Positions 1 to 17,052 of a stretch of 64,000 bases of DNA are shown here, in pieces. Source of the stretch: Phycisphaeraceae bacterium (GTDB taxonomy: Bacteria > Planctomycetota > Phycisphaerae > Phycisphaerales > SM1A02); assembly GCA_019636755.1 (NCBI GenBank), contig JAHBWZ010000008.1, positions 103,900 through 167,899 of the forward strand. The letters run 5' to 3'. Numbering within the stretch: position 1 is the stretch's first letter; each line of letters starts with the position of its first letter. The notes under the pieces were generated by a model that made no database searches, was not told the origin of the DNA, and saw only the letters and a list, made by a program, of their open reading frames with translations. Made by a program: the position numbers and the translations under genes.

Positions 1-801
1 CTGGACGACGTGATGCGGTACCGGATCGATCCGGTCTTCGAGCCGTCCGGGGACGGACCGGATCTTCCGCCGGAGCACCGGCTCGCCGGCTTCGTCGAAC
101 TCAGGAACGTGACCTTCGGCTACAGCCGCCTCGATCCGCCGCTGCTCAAGGACTTCAGCCTTTCCCTGGCGCCCGGCGACCGCGTCGCGCTCGTGGGTGC
201 GTCGGGCAGCGGGAAATCGACGGTCGCCCGGCTGATCAGCGGACTGTACAGGCCCTGGGCGGGGGAGATCCTCTTCGATGACGTCCGGCGCGAGTGCCTC
301 CCGCGCACGATGGTCGCCAACTCCTGCGCGATGGTGGACCAGGACATCTTCTTCTTCGAGGGGACCGTCCGGGAGAACATCGCGCTCTGGGACGGGACGC
401 TGCCCGACGAGGCGATCCAGCAGGCGGCGAAGGACGCCTGCATCCACGAGGAGATCACGGCGCGCAAGGGCGCCTATGCAAGCGTCGTCGAGGAAGGGGG
501 GCGGAACTTCAGCGGCGGCCAGAGGCAGCGGCTGGAGATCGCGCGGGCCCTCGCGATCGACCCGACCATCATCATCATGGACGAGGCGACGAGCGCGCTG
601 GATGCGACGACGGAGAAACTCGTCGATGACAGCATCCGACGGCGCGGCTGCACCTGCATCATCGTCGCGCACCGGCTGAGCACGATCCGTGACTGCAATG
701 AGATCATCGTCCTGGAGGCCGGGCGCATCGTGCAGCGCGGCCCGCACGCTGAACTGATCGCGGTCGACGGACCGTACGCCCGGCTCATCAACGCGGAGTA
801 G
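1..801 (+). CDS. C-terminal ATP-binding domain of a bacteriocin/RiPP-type ABC exporter (NHLM-type peptidase/ATP-binding ABC1-like); 5' end is outside the window
   Basis: Frame is open to base 1. Walker [10 protein letters not shown], signature [15 protein letters not shown], Walker [14 protein letters not shown]-loop VAHRLST. A second exporter gene follows directly, as in NHLM/NHLP export loci. Confidence 0.85.
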
Positions 802-817
802 GACGATCCCGACCCCG

Positions 818-3748
818 ATGTCCGATCACGTGGCGACCATCTTCTCCGAGCGGGGCACGATCGTGCCGGCGGGAAGCAATCAGCCGCTGCCGCTCATCGA
901 TCCCGGCGGTGTCCTGCTCGTCAGGCGCGGCCACGTCGACGTGTTCGCCATCACGATCGTGCACGAGGACGGCGCCCGGGACCTGCGGCGCACCCACCTG
1001 CTGCGCGTGCCCGCCGGTCAGATACTCCTCGGTTTCCGCATGCCGCAGGAGGGCACGAATGCGCTGCTCCTGGGATTCGGCTCCGCCGATGCGGAGGTCG
1101 CGCGGCTGGATGCGGAGGCCGTGGAGGACGCCTCCGGCGCGGCGGAGTTCATGGCAGCGTTCAGCCCGCTGGTCGACCGCTGGATCTCGGCGATCTGCAC
1201 GCTCTGCGCGGATGACCATCCGCCCGCCGGCGCGATCAACCTCCGGGAGGGCGCCACCGTCGACCTGGAGGCCGGCCGGAGCGTGCAGCCCCAGACCGGC
1301 GTGCTGTGGCTCCGCATCCGGGGCGGCACCGCGCGGTTCCTGGGTGAGGCCGATGATCCCGGCATCGACGGTTCACGGCTGTTCCCGCTGGGCAAGGATG
1401 CGTGGATCACGGCGGAGACGCCGCTCCGCGTCCGCGGCTTCCGGGCGTCGGAGGTCGCCGGAACGCGCGGCTGGTGGCGCGGCATCGAGCGGTTCCAGGA
1501 CGCCGCCGACGCGATCATCGATCGGCAGCGCGTGCGCGAACGCGAGGAGTCACGGCGCCGGCTCGTGGCCAAGGCACGCGCGGGGCGATCCGCCGTGCAC
1601 GCCGCGCTCAGCGAACTCGGCGCCGTGCTGTCGCGTCGCGTGGTCCCGAACGTCGGTCGAGCCGGCGACACGACGCTGCTCAATGCATGCAGGCTGGTCG
1701 GCGCCGCCCAGGGGATCGAGATCCGTGATCCGGGCCGGGGCGATGACGGCATCGGCAGCGACCCGATCGCGCGGATCGCGCGGGCATCGCGCTTCGCGTA
1801 CCGGCGGGTGATGCTCCGCCGGGGATGGCACCGGCGGGATGGCGGTCCACTGCTCGGCTTCGTCGCCGCGGACGGAAGGCCGGTGGCGATCCTGCCCGCG
1901 GGCCCGCGGCGGTACGAGGTGCACGACCCGCTTGACGGCGAGGTGGTCGCCGTCGATCGCGGTGTTGCCGAGGAGATCGCCGTCCGTGCCTTCGCGTTCA
2001 CGCGCTGTCTTCCCGACCGACCGCTGTCCGCGATCGATCTGATCCGCTTCGCGAGCCGCGGCATCGGGCGCGATGTCGCCACCGTCGCGGCCGTCGGCGG
2101 GGTCGGTGCGCTGCTGACGCTCGCCACCCCGGTTGCCATCGGCCACCTCTTCGACGCCGTCATTCCCTGGGCGGAGCGCGTGCAGCTCCTCCAGGTCACG
2201 ATCGGACTCGTGGTGGCGGCCCTTGCCGCGGGCGCGTTCCAGGTGACGCGGAACATCGCCCTCATCCGGATCCAGCACCGCGCGGCGGCGTCGCTCCAGG
2301 CGGCACTCTGGGAACGCGTGATCAACCTGCCCGCCCGGTTCTTCAGCCGGTACTCCGCCGGCGACATGGCGACCCGGGCGATGGGCGTGGATGCGATCCG
2401 GGACGAACTCTCCACGTCGGCGGTCACCGCCATCGTGACCGGCGCATTCTCGATCGTCAGCGTCGTCGTGCTCTTCGTCCACAGCCCGGCGGCGGCGGTG
2501 GTGGCACTGCTCCTCGTGATGCTGGTACTCGCGGTGATCATGACCGCGGGCGTGCTGCAGATGCATCATCAGCGTGAACTGGAGGAGTGCGAAGGCCGGA
2601 TGTCGGGCATGCTCCTGCAGTTCATGAACGGGATCGCGAAGATCCGCGTGGCGGCGGCCGAGCACCGGGCGTTTGCCGAGTGGGCGCGGCGGTTCTCGCA
2701 CCAGGCCCGGGTGATGGTGCGCGCGCGGACCCTCAACAACCACCTGGCGGTCTTCAACGCGGTCTTCCCCGTCCTGGGCATGGTCGTCGTCTTCTGGCTT
2801 CTCGCCGATGCGGCCGCCGCGCCGGGGATGGACCGCGCGACCGGCCTGTCGACGGGAAGCGTGCTGGCGTTCCTCTCCGCGTTCACCATCCTGCTCTTCG
2901 GCATGATCCAGCTCGGCGTGACGGCGGCGAACATGCTGACGGTCGTTCCGCTCTACCGGCGACTCCGGCCGATTCTCGAGACGGCGCCGGAGATCGATCC
3001 CGCCCGGATCGATCCGGGACCGCTCCGCGGACGGATCGAGGTCTCGAACGTCTCGTTCCGCTACGAGAAGGACGGCCCCGCGATTCTCGATGCGGTCAGC
3101 CTGCACGTGGAGCCCGGCGAGTTCATTGCCGTCGTCGGCCCGTCGGGGAGCGGCAAGTCGACGCTGCTGCGGATCCTGCTCGGCTTCGAGGCACCGGAGT
3201 CGGGCACGGTGTCGTACGACGGGTTCGATCTCGCGGGGCTGGATCCCCGCGCGGTCCGTCGCCAGCTCGGCGTGGTCCTGCAGGGCGGCGATCTCGCACC
3301 GGGTGACATCTTCACGAACATCGTCGGGTCTGCGGTGGACCTGACCGTCGAAGACGCGTGGGAGGCGGCACGCCAGGCCGGCATGGCCGGAGACATCGCC
3401 GCCATGCCCATGGGCATGCACACCATTCTCAGCGAGGGCGGCGGGTCGCTTTCGGGCGGGCAGCATCAGCGGCTGCTCATCGCGCGGGCCCTGGTCTCCC
3501 GGCCGCGGATCGTGTTCTTCGACGAGGCGACCAGCGCGCTCGACAATCCGACGCAGGCGGTGGTCACCGGGAGCCTCGATCGCCTCCGGGCCACGCGGAT
3601 CGTCATCGCCCATCGCCTGAGCACGATCGTCGGCGCCGACCGGATCTATGTCATGGAACGCGGCCGGGTCGTGCAGTGTGGAACGTATCGCGAACTTGCC
3701 GGAGTCCCGGGCCTGTTCCATGAACTCATCAAGCGCCAGATCGCCTGA
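818..3748 (+). CDS. Second ABC exporter of the pair (NHLM-type ABC2-like): long N-terminal regulatory/peptidase-like region, 6-TM exporter domain and NBD
   Basis: 976-aa ORF with ATG 16 nt after the upstream stop. About 290 aa of non-transporter N-terminus, then a C39-like segment (LLNACRLVGAAQGIEIR...RFAYRRVML...), then a TM domain. NBD motifs [42 protein letters not shown]. Confidence 0.85.
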   Translation: MSDHVATIFSERGTIVPAGSNQPLPLIDPGGVLLVRRGHVDVFAITIVHEDGARDLRRTHLLRVPAGQILLGFRMPQEGTNALLLGFGSADAEVARLDAEAVEDASGAAEFMAAFSPLVDRWISAICTLCADDHPPAGAINLREGATVDLEAGRSVQPQTGVLWLRIRGGTARFLGEADDPGIDGSRLFPLGKDAWITAETPLRVRGFRASEVAGTRGWWRGIERFQDAADAIIDRQRVREREESRRRLVAKARAGRSAVHAALSELGAVLSRRVVPNVGRAGDTTLLNACRLVGAAQGIEIRDPGRGDDGIGSDPIARIARASRFAYRRVMLRRGWHRRDGGPLLGFVAADGRPVAILPAGPRRYEVHDPLDGEVVAVDRGVAEEIAVRAFAFTRCLPDRPLSAIDLIRFASRGIGRDVATVAAVGGVGALLTLATPVAIGHLFDAVIPWAERVQLLQVTIGLVVAALAAGAFQVTRNIALIRIQHRAAASLQAALWERVINLPARFFSRYSAGDMATRAMGVDAIRDELSTSAVTAIVTGAFSIVSVVVLFVHSPAAAVVALLLVMLVLAVIMTAGVLQMHHQRELEECEGRMSGMLLQFMNGIAKIRVAAAEHRAFAEWARRFSHQARVMVRARTLNNHLAVFNAVFPVLGMVVVFWLLADAAAAPGMDRATGLSTGSVLAFLSAFTILLFGMIQLGVTAANMLTVVPLYRRLRPILETAPEIDPARIDPGPLRGRIEVSNVSFRYEKDGPAILDAVSLHVEPGEFIAVVGPSGSGKSTLLRILLGFEAPESGTVSYDGFDLAGLDPRAVRRQLGVVLQGGDLAPGDIFTNIVGSAVDLTVEDAWEAARQAGMAGDIAAMPMGMHTILSEGGGSLSGGQHQRLLIARALVSRPRIVFFDEATSALDNPTQAVVTGSLDRLRATRIVIAHRLSTIVGADRIYVMERGRVVQCGTYRELAGVPGLFHELIKRQIA

Positions 3749-3838
3749 TCCGCTCGCCCCGCCCCGCGCCGCGGTCCGCACGGGTCGCCCGCGCGTCCCG
3801 GGAGGCGGTCCGTCGCGTCGCGCGCTGCGCAGACGGGA

Positions 3839-3864
3839 GCGGGCCCGTCCGGAGACGGGCCCGC
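3839..3864. terminator. Perfect 11-bp stem / 4-nt loop hairpin between convergent genes (possible bidirectional terminator)
   Basis: GCGGGCCCGTC-CGGA-GACGGGCCCGC lies between the ABC exporter stop (3748) and the stop of the minus-strand gene (3935). No T-tract, which is common in high-GC genomes. Confidence 0.4.
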
Positions 3865-3934
3865 CCAGGGGGATCGCGATGATCCGGACGGCTCGCAGGC
3901 GCGGGCCGCCTCCGGACAGTCGACCGCGGAGAGT

Positions 3935-4573
3935 TCAGGACCCGGTCGAACTCCGCCGGACGCGAACCTTGACGTTCGTGCCCGTCGTGCTTCCGCCGGA
4001 GACCGACCCGAGCGATGCGCCGCCGCGTCGCTTCGTCGACGTCGCACCGGTGGAACCGCCGCGGACACCGAGCGTGTCACGGGAGAGGTTGGTGCGGGTC
4101 TTCGGGGCGCCGGTGCCGGTGGAACCGCCGCGGACGCCGAGCGTGTCACGGGAGAGGTTGGTGCGGGTCTTCGGGGCGCCGGTGCCGGTCGAACCGCCGG
4201 ACGCCGCGCCCAGCTTCGTGCCCGTCGACGTGCGCCTGCCGCCACTGGTTCCGGTGGATCCGCCGGAGGTGGCGCCGAGCTTGCTGCCCGTGCCCGTGCG
4301 CTTCGCCGTGGCGCCGGTCGACCCGCCGGACGTCGCGCCGAGCCTGGTGCCTGCCTTCTTCCGGATGGCGCCGCCGGATCCGGCGGAGGTGGAGCCGAGC
4401 TTGCTGCCGGCGCTCTTGCGCTTGGTCGTGGCGCCGCTGGATCCCGTGGAGCCGGATCCGGCGGAGGTGGAGCCGAGCTTGCTGCCCGTGCTCCGGCGCT
4501 TCGCCGTGGCGCCCGTGCTCCCACCCGAGGCCGTGCGGCCCGACGTGGTCTTCTTCTTCGTGGTCGTTGCCAT
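3935..4573 (-). CDS. Hypothetical basic Gly/Ser/Thr/Lys/Arg-rich intrinsically disordered repeat protein (212 aa)
   Basis: Internal ATG at 4573 is preceded by AAGGAG at 8-nt spacing, so the longer track ORF start is rejected. Protein MATTTKKKTTSGRTASGGSTG... has no hydrophobic core. It reiterates GGSTGxxAKRxxTGSKLGxTS and contains two near-identical 23-aa copies (GGSTGTGAPKTRTNLSRDTLGVR). Confidence 0.6.
   Translation of the reverse strand: MATTTKKKTTSGRTASGGSTGATAKRRSTGSKLGSTSAGSGSTGSSGATTKRKSAGSKLGSTSAGSGGAIRKKAGTRLGATSGGSTGATAKRTGTGSKLGATSGGSTGTSGGRRTSTGTKLGAASGGSTGTGAPKTRTNLSRDTLGVRGGSTGTGAPKTRTNLSRDTLGVRGGSTGATSTKRRGGASLGSVSGGSTTGTNVKVRVRRSSTGS
4050..4187. repeat. Direct tandem duplication, 69 bp x 2 (one mismatch), inside the disordered-protein gene
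   Basis: GGTGGAACCGCCGCGGACACCGAGCGTGTCACGGGAGAGGTTGGTGCGGGTCTTCGGGGCGCCGGTGCC is repeated head-to-tail at 4050-4118 and 4119-4187. Confidence 0.9.
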
Positions 4574-4753
4574 GATGCTGACTCCTTGGAGTACCTGCGT
4601 TGTTCCTGCCGGGTGGCGGTCAGCCTGCCCGGAACGGAGCGAGTCGGTCACGAACACAGTCAACGTGACCGGCGATGCTGATGGAAGCGTGAAACGCGCG
4701 CTGCGCGCCACCCGGAATCCGTTCCGGGATCGAAACAATCCGGTGATGCCACC

Positions 4754-5353
4754 ATGAGCAGGCGAGGATCATCGGATGCGCGGTCGTCGGACGGCCGGTC
4801 CGTCGGCGCGGGCGGACCGGATGGAGCGCAGGATGATGTCGCGCACCTGCTTCCCGTGGTGGCGCGGCAGCTCCACCGGCTCGCCGCGGCGCGACTGCGA
4901 TCGGACGGCGCGGACATCCTGCTGGAGCCGGCGGCGCTCGTCAACGAGACCTGGCTCCGCCTCGCATCGCGCGATCCCGCGTCGTGGCGGGATCCTGCAC
5001 ACTTCCTTGCCGTGGCCGCGACGGCGATGCGCCAGATCCTGATCGACCACGCGCGGCAGCGGCGGACGCTCAAACGCGGCTTCGGGCGTGCACGGGTCAC
5101 GTTCGAGGTCGCCGACCGGGACGGAACCGCGTCGTTCGAAGTCCGGGAGGTGGATGAAGCCCTCAAGCGGCTGCGCCACCTGGACCCCCGGGCGGCGCAG
5201 GTCGTCGAACTCCGGTTCTTCACGGGCCGGTCGAATGCAGAGATCGCCGGGGCGCTGGGGGTCTCCAGGAAGACGGTGGCGCTCGACTGGGCGCGTGCCC
5301 GCCGCTGGCTGGCGCAGGAACTCGGGTCCGACCACGATCGACGGCGCGGATGA
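4754..5353 (+). CDS. ECF-type RNA polymerase sigma factor (Sigma70_ECF / TIGR02999-like family typical of Planctomycetes/Acidobacteria)
   Basis: 199 aa. Region-2-like LVNETWLRL...HFLAVAATAMRQILIDHAR. Region-4 HTH AAQVVELRFFTGRSNAEIAGALGVSRKTVALDWARARRWL. No recognisable anti-sigma gene downstream. Confidence 0.8.
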   Translation: MSRRGSSDARSSDGRSVGAGGPDGAQDDVAHLLPVVARQLHRLAAARLRSDGADILLEPAALVNETWLRLASRDPASWRDPAHFLAVAATAMRQILIDHARQRRTLKRGFGRARVTFEVADRDGTASFEVREVDEALKRLRHLDPRAAQVVELRFFTGRSNAEIAGALGVSRKTVALDWARARRWLAQELGSDHDRRRG

Positions 5354-5458
5354 CCGGCGCGGACGTCCGGCGCGGCGCGCACCGCCGCCACGGGTGCACC
5401 GGAGTCACCCGTGGCGGTGGCGTGCCGCGATGAGGTCGGGCGTGCCCGCCCGCGCGGG

Positions 5459-5815
5459 TCAGCCGGCGCCCATGCCGCCGCTGTCCTGCCGGCGCCGCGG
5501 TGCATGCGCCCCGGTGAGGCCCGCACCGCCGGTGGTGGCGTTCAGCGTCGATCCCGACGCGGGCTTGCGCCGCGGCGCGGAGGCATCCGTGGAACCGGCG
5601 GCCGCCCCGCCGGCGGTCGCGTCGGTGAGCGACCTGCGCTTGGCGTCGTTGTTCTGTCCGCGGATGTTGGAGGCCGTGGAACCGGCGGCCGCCCCGGCGG
5701 CGGTCGCGTCGGTGAGCGACTTGCGCTTGGCGTCGTTGTTCTGTCCACGGATGTTGGAGGCCGTGGATCCGCCGGAGACCTTCGTCAGATCGGTTGGCTT
5801 CTTCCTGTCGGTCAT
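5459..5815 (-). CDS. Hypothetical small disordered repeat protein (118 aa)
   Basis: ATG at 5815 is preceded by GGGAG. MTDRKKPTDLTKVSGGSTASNIRGQNNDAKRKSLTDATAAGAAA is followed by a second copy of the 29-aa unit. It shares the SGGST motif and a K-rich N-terminus with the 3935-4573 protein. Confidence 0.5.
   Translation of the reverse strand: MTDRKKPTDLTKVSGGSTASNIRGQNNDAKRKSLTDATAAGAAAGSTASNIRGQNNDAKRRSLTDATAGGAAAGSTDASAPRRKPASGSTLNATTGGAGLTGAHAPRRRQDSGGMGAG
5589..5762. repeat. Tandem duplication, about 87 bp x 2, inside the small disordered-protein gene
   Basis: GTGGAACCGGCGGCCGCC...GGATGTTGGAGGCC occurs twice in tandem and encodes GSTASNIRGQNNDAKR(K/R)SLTDATA.GAAA. Confidence 0.8.
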
Positions 5816-6088: not shown

Positions 6089-7768
6089 CTACCACGCGAC
6101 CCGGGTCGCACCCAGGAGCATGCCCGTGGCGTGCGCGAGATCCACCTGCGCGATCTCGTACGTCGCCAGGGCGTCCGCAAGTGCGATCCGCGCGTCGGCC
6201 AGCCGGGTCTCCGCATCCAGGACCTCGGTGCTGGTGCGCAGGCCCAGTCGGAACTGGCCCTGCTCCGCCTGGTAGTTCCTGGCCTCCAGCACCACGTTCT
6301 GCCGTGCGGCGAGGATCCGCTGCCACGACGCCTCCATCGTGTCGACCGCACCAAGGACCTCGCTCCGGATGACCTGTTCGCGGGCCGCCCGCGTCGCGAG
6401 CCGCTGCAGGCGCGCAAGCAGCGCGCGGCGCAGGGTCGATTCCGCCGCTTCGTTCCCCAGCGGGATCTCCGCTCGAAGCCCGAGTTCCATGCCGTCCGAG
6501 CCGCGGTCGAAGAGGTCATCGAGGGCGCGCCCGGGCGTCCGACCGCTTCCGCCGATGCGATACCGGTACTCCAGGAGGACCAGCGGAAGCCGGCCGCTGC
6601 GCGCCGCATCCACGCGGACGGCGTCCCGGGCAACCTGGAGTTCGAGTTCCAGCAGTTCCATCCGGTGCTGCATCGCCGCCTCGAGCATCGACGCCGGGTC
6701 GACGGTGCGCAGCGCGGCCTCCGGCGAGGCGGCGGCGACGATCCGGACCGGTGACTCGACCTCGAGCCCCGGCCGGTTCATCACCCGCTTCAGGGTGCGC
6801 TGCGCGTCGCGCGCGTCGAGGTCTGCGTCGATGATCGCCGCGAGCCGTCTGGAGAGTCCGGCCTCGGCGCGGACGACCTCGACCTCGGGACCGAGCCCGG
6901 CCTGGAGCCGCGCCTCCGCCTGCTGGACCTGTGCGAGCGCCTGCTCGTACTGCTGCTGGCGGATCTCGAGGATGGCCGCGGTGGCATGCACGATCCAGTA
7001 CGCGCGATCCACGTCGGCGAGGCTGCGCACGATCCGCAGCTTCGTCTGCGCCTCGGTGATCTGCACGTCCAGGGCCGCCAGTCGGATCCGGTGCGTGGCG
7101 AACCACCGCCCGCCGCCGCGCGCGAGCGGGAGACTCAGCGCGAGTTCGATGTCGCTCCAGTACCGGTCGCTGCCGGGGAGTACGCCGGATGCCTCGCGCG
7201 CCGCGGGCAGATGCACGGTCACCGAGCCGCCGGTCCGAAGCGGGATCGTGACGCCGGGATCCAGCGACGCGGCCGGGACGAGTTCACCACGGAAGGTCTC
7301 GACGCGCTCCGGCTGCGCCGTCGAGGCGCCGGCATCCACGAAGAAGAGCGCTTCGAACGCGGCCTCCTCCTCGGAGACGGCCGTCCCGGCGATCTGCGGA
7401 TCGAACAGCGCGACCCGGATGTCCAGGTTGTGCTCGAGCGTCCATGCCCGCGCCTGCGCGAGGGAGACCTCGACCGTTCCGGCGCCGGCGAATCGATCGG
7501 GCGGAGGCACGCGCAGCGATCGACCGGTCGACGGCTGCTCGGGGTGCGGCGCCAGGTGCATGACGTCGATCTGTCGAGTCCGCTCCGGCGACATCCATGC
7601 GCCGCGATCGGAGAGGCGGCCGCGCAGCGGATGACCCGCGTCGCAGCCGGGCAGGACGGTCGACGCGGCCGCGACCAGGGCGATCGACGCGTACCGTCTG
7701 CATGACGATGCATGCCCGGACGCGGGGGACCGGCGGGCAGCGCGCCGTCGGCTACGGACAGGCTGCAT
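6089..7768 (-). CDS. TolC/NodT-family outer-membrane efflux protein, probable lipoprotein
   Basis: 559 aa. N-terminal signal with lipobox-like LVAAASTVLPGC. Two-fold repeated TolC-like helical pattern (LAQARAWTLEHNLDIRVA..., ...LEARNYQAEQGQFRLGLRTSTEVLDAETRLADARIALADALATYEIAQVDLAHATG). Confidence 0.75.
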   Translation of the reverse strand: MQPVRSRRRAARRSPASGHASSCRRYASIALVAAASTVLPGCDAGHPLRGRLSDRGAWMSPERTRQIDVMHLAPHPEQPSTGRSLRVPPPDRFAGAGTVEVSLAQARAWTLEHNLDIRVALFDPQIAGTAVSEEEAAFEALFFVDAGASTAQPERVETFRGELVPAASLDPGVTIPLRTGGSVTVHLPAAREASGVLPGSDRYWSDIELALSLPLARGGGRWFATHRIRLAALDVQITEAQTKLRIVRSLADVDRAYWIVHATAAILEIRQQQYEQALAQVQQAEARLQAGLGPEVEVVRAEAGLSRRLAAIIDADLDARDAQRTLKRVMNRPGLEVESPVRIVAAASPEAALRTVDPASMLEAAMQHRMELLELELQVARDAVRVDAARSGRLPLVLLEYRYRIGGSGRTPGRALDDLFDRGSDGMELGLRAEIPLGNEAAESTLRRALLARLQRLATRAAREQVIRSEVLGAVDTMEASWQRILAARQNVVLEARNYQAEQGQFRLGLRTSTEVLDAETRLADARIALADALATYEIAQVDLAHATGMLLGATRVAW

Positions 7769-7900: not shown

Positions 7901-8479
7901 ATGGACACATCGCATGAGTTCCTCGGTGAACGGAAGCAGGCGCTCGAGGAGGCGTTCTTCGCGCAGCAGGATGACGCCCTGAAGGCACGGCTTCGCAGGC
8001 GGCAGGAGGCGGCTGCCCACCGGGCGGCGCTGCAGTCCGTTTCCGGCATCACCGACGAGCGGCTTCTGGACCATCTCGTGGCGCTGGATGTTCATGCCGG
8101 CGCGCTTTCGGCGCTCACGCTCATCCCGCTGGTCACGGTCGCATGGGCGAACAATCGCATCGAGCCCGGCGAGCGGCGGGTGATCCTCGAGGCCGCCCGG
8201 GAATCGGGCGTCGTCCCGGGTACGGAGGCCCACGAACTCCTCGCCGCCTGGCTCGAACGGCGGCCCGGACCCGGACTCTTCGCGGCGTGGAAGGAGTACA
8301 TCGCGACCATCACGGCGCGGCTGGAACCCTCGGGCCGCCTCGCGCTCCGCGACGGCATCCTCCGGCACGGGCGGGAGGTCGCGGAGGCATCCGGAGGACT
8401 CTTCCCCTTCCTCCGCACCGGAAGCGTCTCGCCGGGGGAGCAGGCGGTGCTGAACGAGATCGAGCGCGCGTTCGCCTGA
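7901..8479 (+). CDS. Hypothetical protein, TerB/DjlA-N-like helical domain
   Basis: 192-aa ORF with normal composition. Segment LIPLVTVAWANNRIEPGERRVILEAARESG...ELLAAWLERRP resembles the TerB-type (aADG.i...E) motif layout. Function is uncertain. Confidence 0.5.
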   Translation: MDTSHEFLGERKQALEEAFFAQQDDALKARLRRRQEAAAHRAALQSVSGITDERLLDHLVALDVHAGALSALTLIPLVTVAWANNRIEPGERRVILEAARESGVVPGTEAHELLAAWLERRPGPGLFAAWKEYIATITARLEPSGRLALRDGILRHGREVAEASGGLFPFLRTGSVSPGEQAVLNEIERAFA

Positions 8480-8517: not shown

Positions 8518-9564
8518 TCACGCCGGCTCGATGCGCGCATGCGTCGCGATGAAGCGCGCCTCGTCCGGGTTGAGCGCGGTGACCTGCGCCGCGTCGAAGC
8601 GCGTGTCCCGGTCCATGCGCGTCTCCGGCGCCGGCGGCGGGGTGCGCTCGGCGCTGTCGGCGCTCCCGACGGCGAATGTCGCGCCGAAGAGCGAGGCGCC
8701 CCGGAAGTCGACGCCCCTGAGATCGGCGCCGCGGAAATCAGCGCCCTCCAGGTCGGCCTGGCGCAGTGAAGCGCCGGCCAGGGCGGCGCCGCTGAACCGG
8801 GCATTGGTGAGATTCGACTTCGCGAAGTCGGCGCCCTCCAGGCGACTGCCGCGGAAGTCCGCATGGCGCAGGACGGCGTCCCGGGCGCGAAGCGCGCGCA
8901 GGTCCAGCCCCGCCGCCTGCAGGCTGAGCAGCGTGCGCCGCTCGATCGTCCGGTCGGCGAGGACGCGGGCGGCGTCGCGCCGATCGAGCGACGATGACAC
9001 GTACCGCTGTTCCCGCCAGGGATCGGCCTCGTTGTGGTATCCCGCTTCCCGCTCCCAGTAGCCGGGCCGGTCCTCCGCGAGGACCTCGATGTGCGTCAGC
9101 CACTTGAGGCTCTTGTAGAAATAGCGATCCCGGGTGACCGTCCGGACCGGCCCGCCGTGGTCGGTCGGAAGCGGCGCGCCGTCGGCGGACCAGGCGACCA
9201 GGACATCGGGGGCGGCGTCGATCGGCAGCGAGGTGTCATGCGATCGCGGTGACCGCGCCCGGAACGAGACGAACCGCGCGCTCCGCTCGGGGACCGCCCG
9301 GTCCAGCAGGACCGGGAGCGGAACGCCGGTGAACGGGACATCGAGGCGCGACCAGCGGGTGACGCAGTGGATGTCGACGCGCCACGTCACCGCATCGAGG
9401 GCCGTGAGTTCCGCCAGGGAGAGCGTCACGGGCCGGGAGACCAGGCCGCCGATGGAAACGCACCACGGGGACGGGTCCGCCGCCGGGGCACGTTCGCCCA
9501 CGATCGGCCAGCGCCCCGGCGCGGCCAGCGCCTGATTCGGCGGGAGTGTGGGACGGGCAGGCAC
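8518..9564 (-). CDS. Sulfite-oxidase-like molybdopterin oxidoreductase domain fused to C-terminal pentapeptide repeats
   Basis: The track ORF (to 10050) runs through tRNA-Arg, so the start must lie below 9593; an in-frame GTG at 9564 is proposed. Body: LPPNQ...WCVSIGGLVSRPVTLSLAEL...DIHCVTRWS...LVAWSADGAPLPTDHGGPVRTVT...YFYKSLKWLTHIEV. Tail: ADFRGSRLEGADFAKSNLTNARFSGAALAGASLRQADLEGADFRGADLRGVDFRGASL. Confidence 0.7.
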   Translation of the reverse strand: MPARPTLPPNQALAAPGRWPIVGERAPAADPSPWCVSIGGLVSRPVTLSLAELTALDAVTWRVDIHCVTRWSRLDVPFTGVPLPVLLDRAVPERSARFVSFRARSPRSHDTSLPIDAAPDVLVAWSADGAPLPTDHGGPVRTVTRDRYFYKSLKWLTHIEVLAEDRPGYWEREAGYHNEADPWREQRYVSSSLDRRDAARVLADRTIERRTLLSLQAAGLDLRALRARDAVLRHADFRGSRLEGADFAKSNLTNARFSGAALAGASLRQADLEGADFRGADLRGVDFRGASLFGATFAVGSADSAERTPPPAPETRMDRDTRFDAAQVTALNPDEARFIATHARIEPA

Positions 9565-9592
9565 GGCGGAAGACGCCTTCTCGGCGGAGAAG

Positions 9593-9666
9593 CGCACCCG
9601 GAGGGACTCGAACCCCCGACCTTCTGGTTCGAAGCCAGACGCTCTATCCAACTGAGCTACGGGTGC
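9593..9666 (-). tRNA. tRNA-Arg (anticodon UCG)
   Basis: GCACCCGTAGCTCAGTTGGATAGAGCGTCTGGCTTCGAACCAGAAGGTCGGGGGTTCGAGTCCCTCCGGGTGCG folds as a cloverleaf: 7-bp acceptor, anticodon loop CUUCGAA, T-loop TTCGAGT. Confidence 0.9.
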
Positions 9667-9855
9667 AGACGGCGGAGGATATCGCGGGCGCCGCCGCGCT
9701 GGAAGCGCGGGCGGGGTGCCGTCCGGATGCGCGGGTGGTGCAGGCACGCGCGGCGGACGGACGACCCGAGGCCGGACTGCCGATGCACTGGCGGGGCAGA
9801 AAGAGGGGGTCTTCCGGCTTTCGTGCGGGGAGACCGGGCCGTGGACGACGCCGCC

Positions 9856-10260
9856 CATGGGGGGCTGAGGCCCCCCATGCACCCCCCTTGCGCGCAGGCG
9901 GGTGGTGGTGGTCAGCCGGCGCGCGAGTGGAGATGCCTGCGCGCAGAGGGTCCGTGGTCGCGCGCAGGACGTCCGGCGGCGACGGCGCGTGCAGCGCGGC
10001 GCGTCCGTGATCGCCTTGTTGCGAGTCAAGGCGTTCCCCGGATCATCCATCCGCGAGGGGGGTTGCAGGGGGGCGCTTCAGCCCCCCTGCGCATGCGCGT
10101 GCCGAAATCGATGGCGTGCACGGCGCCATGCCCGGGCGCATCGTCCTGATCGATGACTGGTGCTTGATCGCGCGCCCAATGTCTTTCAAGCACCCGGGTG
10201 GACCTCGGGTCTCCCCGGTCACGAGAGTCTCGTCCGGGTGCGCGAGCGCAGGTGGGGCTG
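9856..10260. repeat. Dispersed copy of the composite G7/C7-hairpin repeat element (same family as the 42.3-46.4 kb array)
   Basis: Hairpin A-type CATGGGGGGCTGAGGCCCCCCATG (9856-9879). Core ...GGTGGTCAGCCGGCGCGCGAGTGG... Hairpin B-type GCAGGGGGGCGCTTCAGCCCCCCTGC (10065-10090), preceded by GGATCATCCATCCGCGAGGGGGG. Degenerate continuation to about 10260. Confidence 0.8.
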
Positions 10261-10904
10261 GACATCCGCGATGCCGTCGATCCCGCGCGTCCGGGCGAAG
10301 CCCGACTCCCGGCGCGCGGGCGTGCGTTCACTCCGCCGGTACGCCCTCGCCGCCATCCCCGGCTCCAGGCGATCACGCCATCGGCGTGCTGGGCTGCAGG
10401 CGATACACGCGCGCCCGTCGCCGGCGAAACACGTCGTTCGCAAGGCGGGTCCACCCGCACGAAGGCCGGAAGCCCCAAAAAGGATGACGGGCGGCCGCTC
10501 ACGCGGACGCCCGTCGTTGGATCAGGAAAACGACTCGTCGCCGGGTTCCGTGTCGCCGCGTGTCCGCGTCGTGGACGGTGAGGTCGGGCCCCATCGAGTC
10601 GGCCGTTCCTCCGGATGCAGCCCGAAGGCCGCACGCCATCCGCGGAGCAGGTCTGATGCCGCTCCGCCCGGGTTCCGATGTTCGAAGCGTCTCTCCGTCT
10701 TCTCACAAGCGCCGACGCTTTCTTCCGATGGGCCCATGTCGCCGGGGCGGGGTCGCCGAGGCGGGTGGACCGACCGGTTGCGGTCACGTCGAAGCTCGAC
10801 TCTCTCTCTCTCGGGCTCTCTCGTCTCGATGGGAAGGAGGTTCCCGGGAACCGAAGCCGGTTGCCGGGAAGGCGAACTCTCGGACGTGAGTGTATCGGCC
10901 CTGG

Positions 10905-15273: not shown

Positions 15274-17052
15274 TCAGGCGCGGCGCGCTTCGCCGGACTT
15301 GTCCTTCAGCCATGCGTGCAGGCGCCGCGCCGGCCATGCATTCACGCAGCGATCCGCAGGCAGGCCGCCGCGGCGGGCGGTGAGGATGCCGTACCGGAGC
15401 TGATCGAACTGCTCCGGCGCATGGGCGTCCGTGTTGATCGCGATGAGCGCGCCCGCGTCGAGCGCGATCCGGATATGCGCGTCGCGGAGGTCGAGTCGCA
15501 GCGAGTTCGCATTCACCTCGAGCGCCGTGCCTGTCGCGGCGGCGGCCGCCGCGATCGCCCGGATGTCCGGTTCGAGTCCGCGGCGTCGACCGATCAGCCG
15601 ACCCGTCGGGTGACCGAGGATGTGCACGCGCGGGTGCCGGACGGCGCAGAGCAGCCGCGCCGTCGCGGAGTCGGGAGACTGCCGCAGCGCCGCGTGCGGG
15701 GAGGCGACGACGAGGTCGAGTCCGCCGAGCGTCCGGTCGTCGTAGTCGAGCCGGCCGTCCGCGAGAATGTCCACTTCGCTGCCCGCGAGCAGGCGCACGC
15801 CGCGGCACTGCGCCGCCAGCGCGCGGATCCGTGCCGCGTGGACGTGAAGGCGGTCGACATCCAGGCCGTTCGCCTGCACGCTCGAACGGGAGTGATCGGT
15901 GACGGCGATCGAATGAAACCCGCGCGCCCGCGCGAGTCTGATGATCTCCTCCACCTCCATGGACCCGTCGCTGGCCGTCGAGTGGACGTGCAGGTCCGCG
16001 CGGATGTCCTCGACGGTCACGAGCGTGTCCGACGGCACCGGCGGGGCGATCGTCTCGCCCTCGCGCAGTTCGGGGGCGATCCATGGAAGGTCGAGCTTCC
16101 CGTAGATGGCCTCCTCCGTCGCGGCGGCGACCGGCCGTCCCTGGGCATCGCCCGCGCCGCGCGAAGGCCCCTTGAACAGGCCGTACTCGTTGAGATGCAT
16201 GCCCCGGTCGATCGCGCGCTGCCGGAGTGCGATGTTGTGCTGCTTCGATCCGGTGAAGTAGAGGAGCGCCGCGCCGAAGGCACGGGCAGGGACGATGCGC
16301 AGGTCGACCTGGATGCCTTCGTCACGCATGACGCTGGCGCGGGTCGAACCCTCCGCGAGCACGCGCGACACGCCGTCAAGCGTCACGAACGCGCGGGCGA
16401 CGGCGGGCCCGTCCTCGGCGACGCACAGCAGGTCGATGTCTCCGATCGTCTCCGCGCCGCGGCGGAGCGATCCGGCGATCTCGACGCGATCGACACCGTC
16501 CAGCGCCCGCACCTGCGCCGCGATCGACTCGGCGATCGGAAGCGCCCGGCCCAGCCGCATCCGCTCCGCGCCGCGGCGTCGCTCGGCGATCGCCTGGCGG
16601 AGGTTCTCGATCGTCTTCGCGCCGAGACGGGGTATGCCCTCGAGGCGGCCGTCGGCGATGGCCTTCTCCAGTCCGTCCAGATCGACGATGCCCGCGTTCT
16701 GCCAGAGCGAGCGCGCCAGCGCGGGGCCCACGCCGGGCAGGTCGAGGATCGCAATGAGCCCGGGAGGAATGCCCTCGCGGAGCTGTTCGAGATCCGTGAT
16801 GCGCCCGGTCCGGCACCATTCGGCGATCCGGCGCGCCGAGGACTCGCCGATCCCCTCCAGCGCGACCAGCGCCGAGAGGTCCTCGCCGGACCGGGCACCG
16901 GGGACGTCGCAGATGTCCGTCGGCATCGCCTCCAGCACCCGGGCCACGCGCGCGACCGCGAGGACGCGGAACCGGTCCGCGCCGGAGAGTTCCATCAGCA
17001 GAGCCATCTCTGCGAAGAGCGAGGCCGCTTCTTCGTTCGGTCGCCCGGTCAC
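15274..17052 (-). CDS. polX: Family X DNA polymerase with C-terminal PHP phosphoesterase domain (PolX)
   Basis: 592 aa. HhH segments (LPGVGPALARSL). Pol-beta nucleotidyltransferase core EIAGSLRRGAETIGDIDLL. PHP motifs DLHVHSTASDG, IAVTDHS and ILGHPTGR. Confidence 0.9.
   Translation of the reverse strand: MTGRPNEEAASLFAEMALLMELSGADRFRVLAVARVARVLEAMPTDICDVPGARSGEDLSALVALEGIGESSARRIAEWCRTGRITDLEQLREGIPPGLIAILDLPGVGPALARSLWQNAGIVDLDGLEKAIADGRLEGIPRLGAKTIENLRQAIAERRRGAERMRLGRALPIAESIAAQVRALDGVDRVEIAGSLRRGAETIGDIDLLCVAEDGPAVARAFVTLDGVSRVLAEGSTRASVMRDEGIQVDLRIVPARAFGAALLYFTGSKQHNIALRQRAIDRGMHLNEYGLFKGPSRGAGDAQGRPVAAATEEAIYGKLDLPWIAPELREGETIAPPVPSDTLVTVEDIRADLHVHSTASDGSMEVEEIIRLARARGFHSIAVTDHSRSSVQANGLDVDRLHVHAARIRALAAQCRGVRLLAGSEVDILADGRLDYDDRTLGGLDLVVASPHAALRQSPDSATARLLCAVRHPRVHILGHPTGRLIGRRRGLEPDIRAIAAAAAATGTALEVNANSLRLDLRDAHIRIALDAGALIAINTDAHAPEQFDQLRYGILTARRGGLPADRCVNAWPARRLHAWLKDKSGEARRA

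Follow-up and report, generated by a model that had tools for sequence, protein, structure and literature searches.

Candidate cargo of a C39 exporter in a Phycisphaeraceae bacterium: two basic, repeat-bearing proteins assigned to a fast-evolving double-glycine leader-peptide family

We analysed a window of 64,000 nucleotides (C19:103900-167899) from the genome of a Phycisphaeraceae bacterium (4.1 Mb, ~70 % GC), in which two minus-strand open reading frames (ORFs), IDP1 (3935-4573) and IDP2 (5459-5815), flank the gene for an extracytoplasmic function (ECF) sigma factor and lie between a pair of ABC exporter genes and a TolC-family gene. This layout had been described in an initial annotation made from the sequence alone and was confirmed at the same positions, as were the N-termini given there for the two ORFs of 212 and 118 amino acids (aa). 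In the reading that we favour, the adjacent C39 exporter would take both proteins as its cargo, and they would belong to an unnamed, fast-evolving leader-peptide family in which IDP1 is a repeat-amplified long form. The analysis shows that the two ORFs are coding, that exporter and peptidase are intact, that gene position and motifs place both proteins in the family, and that a promoter motif is conserved. That the proteins are cleaved, at one or several sites, and exported, that they depend on sigma, and what their products do biologically, we infer.

The initial annotation had offered three roles for the two proteins, namely hydrophilin- or late embryogenesis abundant (LEA)-like stress proteins, nucleoid- or polyanion-binding proteins, and unconventional cargo or regulators of the exporter. 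The last is the role we favour, as relatives encode canonical double-glycine (GG) peptides at the same position; IDP2 has a leader of this type, and at the place of IDP1 other genera encode long repeat proteins that seem to derive from such peptides. Both other roles are weakened by the finding that charge is not conserved: the counterparts at the IDP1 position in other genera are acidic and Pro/Gln-rich, with isoelectric points (pI) of 4.0-4.8 vs 12.0 for IDP1. Because the pI shifts from 12 here to 4 in the relatives' genomes G103 and G067, a charge-dependent role such as nucleoid binding is disfavoured, and the shift is in keeping with the fast divergence that typifies peptides secreted as signals or antagonists.

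An export cassette and its candidate cargo

The models TIGR03794, TIGR03796 and TIGR03797, whose members are encoded together in the NHLM export cassette, all score above cut-off here. TIGR03797 gave 900 bits on ABC2 (cut-off 709), TIGR03796 gave 430 bits on the C-terminal third of ABC1 that falls inside the window, and a HlyD-type adaptor gene just outside the window gave 290 bits with TIGR03794 (cut-off 156). Full-length ABC1 has 810 aa and starts upstream of the window at C19:102268; its public gene call carries PF03412 Peptidase_C39, and the C39 domain retains its catalytic motifs, with Q/C in LQMEAVECG, the His in NHF and the Asp in NDP. With the rest of ABC1 and the adaptor gene located just beyond the window edge, the export cassette is complete, and IDP1 lies 3.1 kb from the end of ABC1. 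An NHLP (TIGR03793) or Nif11 (TIGR03798) leader domain was found neither in the two proteins nor, at E ≤ 0.1, anywhere in the genome, with the control for TIGR03793 being silent. No YcaO enzyme was found in the genome, LanC-like proteins were not found in a genome search whose control was also silent, and no tailoring enzyme is encoded within ~15 kb of the locus. This leaves IDP1 and IDP2 as the only cargo in sight, probably in unmodified form.

Both ABC1 and the adaptor carry acidic extensions in this genome. In ABC1 a very acidic stretch of ~95 aa containing D/E runs (e.g. DDDDDDAVEDEEGDG) precedes the C39 domain (C19:102268-102550; ~16269-16550 on assembly contig L019), and the HlyD adaptor has an acidic N-terminal extension of ~120 aa (C19:100665-101020). 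These extensions have no counterpart in relatives, which align only from residue 74-121 on. As this genome also has the most basic cargo (IDP1, net charge +35), it is conceivable that they serve in electrostatic docking of cargo.

A search of the bacterial family with TIGR03797 identified the cassette in 26 of 121 genomes, and hydrophilic peptides with GG leaders are encoded beside the HlyD / C39-ABC / ABC genes in 10 genomes from 7 genera. Sigma and peptide genes beside the cassette recur in related genera, which was the synteny check proposed in the initial annotation. The gene order HlyD - ABC1 - ABC2 - gap - sigma - TolC seen here is shared by G103 and G067, where the genes in the gap lie, like IDP1, on the strand opposite to ABC2 and sigma; TolC occupies the same position in G103, G067 and G049. 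G103 encodes a long protein of 212 aa (MPKEDTNKIDLKKVAAG/AAAPSPYQQAP...) that contains five repeats, the majority after ADLGGQAAG, and ends TIKIKIADADL... It also encodes a short peptide of 59 aa (MTNEDTNNKKIDEELEEVAGG/RARPSMYEIAP...) with a double-glycine leader of the textbook kind, and the G103 relatives include the textbook leader IDEELEEVAGG. The protein of G067 (97 aa) reads MPEKDKQEQPDFKTVAGG/TGDGPEVETERPGKSKPVVGLTAAG/TGDGPELETERPGRTKPHLDVGLVAGG/AADD...KIKIRVDDPDLGAK, and in G053 the contig breaks within the equivalent repeat gene, whose product ends ...GVRIRKDKG... Long-form counterparts with the same place, orientation and tail were found in these three other genera.

Further genera encode peptides of 44-53 aa at the same place, with leaders KLSxxDLxKV(A/S)GG and basic cores rich in Ser, Thr, Gly, Arg and Lys, two examples being MAEAKKPKKLSADDMKKVAGG/AKSRSTSTSSVGRTGPRKSTRGR and MTNDKKLNAKDLASVKGG/AAKGRSSLAKASGGRTASKGVNLGSKRR. 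In G024 the short peptide is encoded beside the sigma orthologue on another contig. Downstream of ABC2 in the same genome (L052 7377-8429, plus strand), where other genera have the GG peptide, we observed three tandem paralogous small proteins with one transmembrane helix each and a conserved REQTKREIAAYVAEGS...PE motif, which are assigned to no family and may be immunity-like or accessory. Among 80 NHLP-exporter loci from other phyla only one similar hydrophilic GG peptide was seen, in a Phycisphaeraceae metagenome-assembled genome that also provides the best named match to ABC2 (52 % identity).

These peptides probably form a fast-evolving and previously unnamed family, so far seen only in this bacterial family of the Phycisphaerae. 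Judged from sequence features, it would comprise short single-core forms of 44-59 aa and long forms in which a unit of leader end, cleavage site and core is tandem-amplified and followed by a conserved tail. In this scheme IDP1 would count among the long forms, and IDP2 would be a shorter member that bears repeats and has a good leader. Homology searches, a check advised in the initial annotation, yielded no homologue and no known family for either protein: 40 related genomes gave composition-driven noise only, 5.8 billion proteins gave only noise or the query itself, 1.84 billion cluster representatives gave nothing for IDP1, and no Pfam or NCBIfam family matched at E ≤ 0.01, which includes the histone-like families named in the annotation. 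As sequence searches return no homologues, family membership rests on synteny and motifs.

When leaders were aligned on GG they gave the consensus M..K..DLxxVxGG, and the GG of IDP2 (residues 15-16) and of IDP1 (residues 17-18) both aligned to that of the leaders of 9 relatives. In the structure of LahT the residues at -4, -7 and -12 dock into the C39 groove (PMC6363468). Short-form relatives have a hydrophobic residue at all three of these positions, and the IDP2 leader MTDRKKPTDLTKVSGG (DLTKVSGG) has V at -4 and L at -7. With a profile built solely from the leaders of relatives, the N-terminus of IDP2 ranked 3rd of 57,317 six-frame segments of the genome. The second-ranked match, a small plus-strand ORF of C17 that starts near 171950 (MPLEMYDRLVKLVESAAEDVKKAAGGNKAAGTRVRKIMQEV...), looks by eye like the chlamydial histone-like protein Hc1 and is a false positive. 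On the bacteriocin_sig model TIGR01847 the leaders of two relatives scored 14.8 and 12.9 bits (cut-off 15.7). The earlier statement that the proteins have no leader peptide consequently lacks support for IDP2, whose DLTKVSGG fits the consensus of its relatives. For IDP1 it is partly right, in that a short N-terminal region does end in GG but this first GG site is degenerate.

Sites resembling the leader end recur inside the proteins. Internal sites of IDP1 such as RLGATSGG/ST and SLGSVSGG/ST have L at -7, and the pattern [LIVMF]-x4-[GA]-G occurs 6 times in IDP1 vs 1.3 expected in shuffles (P=0.0004) and 3 times in IDP2 vs 0.46 expected (P=0.01), P values that overstate the support because repeat copies are not independent. 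The sheer number of GG dipeptides, which had been thought to recall C39 sites, was discarded as a signal, since the 10 in IDP1 are what its composition predicts (11.6 ± 2.6 in shuffles). The single-core peptide of G103 aligns to the N-terminal unit of the long protein (E=3e-10), and its leader end plus core aligns to three internal junctions of that protein (E=1e-8, 2e-6 and 2e-4), from which the amplified unit appears to consist of leader end, cleavage site and core. A junction pattern of hydrophobic - x - small - G-G recurs in the otherwise unrelated repeats of G067, G053, IDP1 and IDP2, and the tail follows (V/I)(K/R)(V/I)(K/R)(V/I), with NVKVRVRR in IDP1 comparable to KIKIRVDD, IKIKIADAD and VRIRKDKG in relatives. 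Together these features suggest that the long forms are polyprotein-like cargo with repeated cleavage sites. RTX nonapeptides of the GGxGxD type were not found: the GGSTG units lack Asp, the pI values of 12.0 and 11.4 are not acidic and no RTX family of Pfam matched.

In the mechanism that we propose, the exporter would be made up of the HlyD-type adaptor (TIGR03794), the C39 ABC subunit (TIGR03796), the second ABC subunit (TIGR03797) and TolC. The C39 domain of ABC1 would recognise the hydrophobic -7/-4 positions and G-G and cut after GG at the N-terminal site, possibly with further cuts at internal L-x4-G-G sites that would release several peptides, and the product would pass through ABC1/ABC2-HlyD-TolC to the outside. 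The long-form gene has the ECF sigma factor as a conserved companion and a promoter-like motif of its own that is likewise conserved. NHLP-type exporters are widespread, and many genomes, this one included, have no recognisable cargo annotated, so that the pumps look orphaned. The cargo family described here is apparently invisible to sequence search, yet it can be told by where its genes lie, by a leader of 14 residues, by the short tail at the C-terminus and by the promoter motif. Should the L-x4-G-G junctions be cut, the long forms would represent a polyprotein-type substrate for a double-glycine peptidase, and tandem duplication would multiply the peptide output of one gene. We found no description of such reiterated double-glycine sites in the literature searched, one cyanobacterial survey included.

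Coding status and composition of IDP1 and IDP2

IDP1 and IDP2 are real protein-coding genes in their minus-strand frames. GC content at third codon positions (GC3) is 0.90 and 0.88 respectively, and the good ribosome-binding sites reported in the initial annotation are present (AAGGAG for IDP1 and AGGGAG for IDP2, each 8 nt before the ATG); GGAG-type sites also precede the peptide genes of all relatives. To separate the strands we scored synonymous codon choice only, with the effect of amino-acid composition removed. The minus frame exceeded its shadow for both IDP1 (0.488 vs 0.320) and IDP2 (0.412 vs 0.189), compared with 0.47 ± 0.09 (sense) and 0.27 ± 0.09 (shadow) for real genes of this genome, in which sense exceeds shadow in 98 % of 200-codon chunks. 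TTG makes up 8 of 20 Leu codons in the shadow frame of IDP1 and 8 of 11 in that of IDP2 but 1 % of Leu codons genome-wide. Leader, C-terminal tail and promoter motif are kept in the minus-strand orientation among relatives, and an Rfam scan of the region gave no match.

Independent gene calls on an ENA assembly place genes of 212 and 118 aa on the minus strand. The 118-aa gene was called in six assemblies (ENA and five from Logan), and the five Logan assemblies also hold the start of IDP1, cut by the contig end. Sequences of the assemblies are near-identical to the window; the sole difference within IDP1, at position 4067, is synonymous (GGT/GGC), and the alternative base brings the two 69-bp repeat copies closer. 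The Logan contigs (L017/L018 and L139-L143) end at window positions 4097 and 4457, such that, for at least seven runs, public assemblies from short reads stop within the IDP1 repeats, and as they do so from both sides IDP1 is missing or split in most assemblies of the organism.

It is highly improbable that the minus-strand ORFs are an annotation artefact, either as shadows of a real plus-strand gene at 3648-4757 or as reading frames in a non-coding region. Such a reading could draw on the plus-strand ORF itself (369 aa), which is antisense to IDP1, shares third codon positions with it, overlaps the start codon of sigma at its end (ATGA) and makes a persuasive decoy for annotators. The plus frame has the canonical pattern of GC1/GC2/GC3 in the IDP1 region (0.81/0.51/0.90), a codon model into which amino-acid composition also enters prefers it (0.194 vs 0.062 for IDP1), and, as given above, homologues of the two proteins were lacking in the 5.8 billion proteins and, for IDP1, in the 1.84 billion representatives. 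That mixed model was discarded for the synonymous-only test, in which the margin of the minus frames is typical of real genes, and the plus frames would need TTG at 40-73 % of their Leu codons. The artefact is opposed as well by the ribosome-binding sites before the minus-strand ATGs, the choice of independent gene callers, the terminal features and promoter motif that relatives keep in the minus orientation, and the lack of an Rfam match. The possibility that these were GC-artefact ORFs had been raised in the initial annotation, and both the conserved terminal features and the codon statistics favour the minus frames. A lesson for annotation is that low-complexity genes in GC-rich genomes cast an antisense shadow of more 'normal' composition, and here the two frames could be separated by synonymous-codon statistics only.

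IDP1 (pI 12.0, net charge +35) is 61 % Gly/Ser/Thr (24 % Gly, 20 % Thr and 17 % Ser, with Ser and Thr making up 38 % of the core) and consists of ~8 units of ~22 aa, most ending L-G-x-x-S-G-G, before the C-terminal tail. IDP2 (pI 11.4, net charge +10) has its leader followed by two 29-aa repeats and a Gly-rich tail. Gly content of the two proteins is 15-24 %, neither contains Cys or aromatic residues, and the hydrophobic segment that the initial annotation had found lacking is indeed absent, with Kyte-Doolittle maxima over 19 residues of 0.18 (IDP1) and 0.45 (IDP2). Of the SGGST motif noted as common to both, IDP1 has 5 copies and IDP2 a single one. Similarity between the two proteins was not significant (E=0.11), which we return to below.

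All repeat periods are divisible by 3. IDP1 contains a 69-bp array (2.2 copies, 97 % matches) and a 66-bp array (2.7 copies, 76 %). The in-frame 69-bp duplication was described earlier with a single mismatch; its copies differ only at synonymous third positions, of which there are two in the protein register. In IDP2 the reported in-frame duplication of about 87 bp was recovered by Tandem Repeats Finder (2.2 copies, 95 % matches), and the four differences between its copies comprise two synonymous changes, K>R and A>G. AlphaFold2 predicted no secondary structure for IDP1 and a low mean pLDDT of 41.5, in line with the disorder proposed for it; residues 201-210, which hold the NVKVRVRR tail, form the sole block in which pLDDT reaches 64. 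An ice-nucleation-like or beta-solenoid fold for IDP1 was considered and received no support from AlphaFold2.

The ECF sigma factor and a promoter-like motif

The gene between IDP1 and IDP2 encodes an ECF sigma factor, as first annotated, with matches to PF07638 (136 bits, cut-off 21) and TIGR02999 (164 bits, cut-off 126, residues 25-190). Orthologues with 51-59 % identity (E<1e-49) were identified only in G067, G024, G103 and G049, in the same position, and weaker matches in many other genomes resemble paralogues. The peptide gene and the sigma gene are divergent neighbours in 5 genera, and for the orthologues this holds wherever the flank is available. In G105 the sigma factor so paired is a more distant one (36 % identity). 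The earlier remark that no anti-sigma partner is visible holds, as none is encoded beside the sigma gene. In G024 (L175 516-3509) the gene after sigma encodes a Ser/Thr kinase (778 aa) that has a transmembrane segment and, at its C-terminus, a domain of ~380 aa that is TPR-like by eye. In G105 (L057 10730-12381) it is followed by a 351-aa ORF whose N-terminus looks like that of such kinases. The G024 kinase is a candidate sensor for the exported peptide. Many such kinases are encoded in the present genome and none at the locus; the nearest is ~20 kb off, beside what appears to be another ECF sigma factor gene.

A comparison of the intergenic regions between sigma and peptide genes in this genome, G103 and G067 brought out a single bipartite word common to all three, GGTGGCGC-N15-CGCT. 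It lies on the peptide strand, 113-139 nt 5′ of the start codon in 4 genera; the fourth case was predicted and then found in G024, within an AT-rich intergenic region and again 139 nt upstream (GGTGGCGCTGAGCGGCCCGTTTACGCT). In its strict form the word occurs 14 times in 8.2 Mb (both strands of this genome). The motif could be the target of the ECF sigma factor, and the sigma factor most likely controls, or is co-controlled with, expression of the cargo. Scans of the locus for sigma-70 promoters and terminators gave nothing useful. In G047 and G105 the short-form genes share an 11-mer upstream, CGCTTGCACGC, which lies ~75-90 nt from the start codon (minus strand of L055 ~9515-9700 and of L057 ~10080-10330), and differs from the long-form motif.

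The arrangement also allows a peptide-signalling circuit to be envisaged, which we regard as a rather unlikely extension of the cargo reading. A precursor would be cut at reiterated double-glycine sites, the released peptides or the tail peptide would be read back via the ECF sigma factor, and autoinduction would proceed from GGTGGCGC-N15-CGCT. The signal could be read back by a membrane Ser/Thr kinase with a peptide-binding repeat domain, such as that encoded beside sigma in G024, or alternatively uncut protein might hold sigma until exported. The conserved pairing with an ECF sigma factor of the kinase-linked type also suggests how peptide export might be coupled to transcription outside Firmicutes.

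Alternative explanations and known systems

A number of observations count against the cargo reading or against parts of it. The first GG of IDP1 is degenerate (A at -4, G at -7, K at -12) and without the hydrophobic knobs that C39 needs, its N-terminus does not score on the leader profile, and at 212 aa it is long for known cargo of peptidase-containing ABC transporters. IDP2 has K at -12 and no hydrophobic residue there, neither protein matches the curated leader models at E ≤ 0.01, and the lack of significant similarity between IDP1 and IDP2 belongs here too. As regards regulation, nothing ties the motif to this sigma factor in particular; in 3 of 4 genera its core, GG-N10-GC, is sigma-54-like, and a gene for RpoN is present in the genome. 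The motif is moreover absent upstream of IDP2 and hlyD, as it is upstream of the short-form peptide genes, such that no regulon can be defined.

With these points in mind we considered functions for the proteins other than as exported, unmodified peptides. In an export-gated scheme that follows FlgM/sigma-28 logic, a GG-tagged disordered protein, especially IDP1, would hold the ECF sigma factor, and cleavage or export by the C39 pump would free it. No anti-sigma gene adjoins sigma, the pairing of peptide and sigma is kept in 5 genera, IDP1 is predicted to be disordered in the way that FlgM is disordered, and the conserved termini could be binding or recognition elements. We nonetheless judge this unlikely, since the bodies of the long proteins cannot be aligned across genera and range from pI 12 to 4 while sigma stays 51-59 % identical, which is hard to reconcile with a conserved sigma-binding interface. 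In G024 and G105, furthermore, the kinase or kinase-like gene after sigma already offers a candidate regulator, and short-form peptides exist without any sigma factor in G047. It is similarly doubtful that the proteins are cytoplasmic stress or nucleic-acid-binding polycations of the sigma regulon that are never exported, with the leader likeness a by-product of composition. Extreme hydrophilicity, high Gly content, net charges of +35 and +10, predicted disorder, an adjoining stress-type sigma factor and the poor C39 substrate presented by the first GG of IDP1 would all be accommodated. Against this, only the general composition fits hydrophilins, there being no match to LEA, KGG, histone-like (HU/Hc1) or other families of Pfam and NCBIfam. 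A polycation function is not conserved in the acidic, Pro/Gln-rich positional counterparts, the IDP2 leader is among the three best matches genome-wide and lies inside an exporter locus, and the leader IDEELEEVAGG among the G103 relatives is of the textbook type.

A last alternative is that the proteins are precursors of RiPPs (peptides made on the ribosome and modified after translation), with Ser/Thr-rich cores tailored by glycosylation, phosphorylation or dehydration through enzymes encoded elsewhere and exported by the NHLP-type system. Multi-core precursors are known in other RiPP classes, a precedent for the repeats, and the IDP1 core is rich in Ser and Thr. The TIGR03794/03796/03797 cassette was itself defined by association with RiPP precursors (PMC2887384). 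We consider this quite improbable, given the lack of a tailoring enzyme within ~15 kb and of YcaO in the genome, the failure to find LanC-like proteins in a search with a silent control, the absence of Cys and of an NHLP or Nif11 leader domain from both proteins, and core compositions that are not conserved between genera.

The cargo reading is closest to the systems of peptidase-containing ABC transporters (PCAT), or ABC-transporter maturation and secretion (AMS) proteins, whose cargo includes colicin V (CvaAB-TolC), class II bacteriocins, ComC (ComAB) and the substrates of LahT. Shared with these are a short GG leader with hydrophobic -4 and -7 positions, as seen in IDP2 and in relatives, an ABC transporter whose C39 motifs are intact, an HlyD-type adaptor with TolC nearby, variable cores and the lack of a Sec signal peptide. 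The IDP cores differ in being long, disordered and non-amphipathic, without Cys or aromatics; the unit of leader end and core is tandemly repeated in one protein, and the first GG of IDP1 is degenerate. In place of an immunity gene or a histidine-kinase/response-regulator pair there is an ECF sigma factor. The ECF43-like sigma factors of the PF07638/TIGR02999 group that are paired with Ser/Thr kinases offer a second comparison: the sigma factor here is a full-score member without an anti-sigma, and in G024 and G105 sigma is followed by a kinase or kinase-like gene, whereas this genome has no adjacent kinase. To our knowledge no link of this group to a peptide-export locus has been described.

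FlgM/sigma-28 resembles the present locus in that a disordered small protein and a dedicated exporter are encoded together with an alternative sigma factor for which there is no anti-sigma of the classical membrane type. In contrast to FlgM, the body of the protein is not conserved and putative export would use a leader-cleaving ABC pump, not a type III apparatus. Multi-core RiPP precursors (cyanobactin PatE-type, multi-core microviridins and fungal KEX2-processed) likewise have tandem cores, each flanked by a recognition or cleavage motif, with repeat number and sequence that diverge fast. Here, however, processing at GG sites is proposed to fall to the C39 domain of the exporter itself, and tailoring enzymes are lacking. 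The NHLP/Nif11 precursor systems (Haft et al. 2010, PMC2887384) use the same three-gene cassette, for which all three models score above cut-off, but the cargo here is without an NHLP/Nif11 leader domain, its leaders measure 16-32 aa as opposed to ~70-80 aa, and no cyclodehydratase or lanthionine synthetase was found at the locus or in the genome.

Table 1 Features mapped in and around the IDP1/IDP2 locus (window coordinates)
Feature	Coordinates	Strand	Description
ABC1, 3′ part	1-801	+	NHLP-type exporter subunit with N-terminal C39 peptidase domain; TIGR03796, 430 bits (in-window part)
ABC2	818-3748	+	976 aa, NHLP-type permease/ATPase subunit without peptidase domain; TIGR03797, 899.7 bits
IDP1	3935-4573	-	212 aa; candidate repeat-expanded exporter cargo
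69-bp tandem duplication within IDP1, recent, in-frame	4047-4199		Tandem Repeats Finder
66-bp repeat array within IDP1, older	4181-4351		Tandem Repeats Finder
Promoter-like motif GGTGGCGC-N15-CGCT	4686-4712	-	139 nt 5′ of the IDP1 start codon
ECF sigma factor, 199 aa	4754-5353	+	PF07638, TIGR02999; divergent from IDP1
IDP2	5459-5815	-	118 aa; candidate exporter cargo
87-bp tandem duplication within IDP2, recent, in-frame	5587-5775		Tandem Repeats Finder
TolC-family outer-membrane factor	6089-7768	-	PF02321 OEP, 121 bits

The wider setting of the locus is summarised as follows. Public gene calls start the TolC gene at a shorter start, giving 490 aa. Adjoining it is a gene for a 192-aa protein (7901-8479, plus strand), which was called in all assemblies and matched no Pfam or NCBIfam family, and also on the downstream side lies a gene for a Mo-oxidoreductase fused to pentapeptide repeats. 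Upstream of the export cassette are genes for a DUF2868 protein, a DUF3482 GTPase and MltA. The DUF2868 membrane protein and the DUF3482 GTPase (MMR_HSR1) form a pair directly 5′ of the HlyD gene on the same strand (L019 10149-14422, equivalent to C19:96148-100421).

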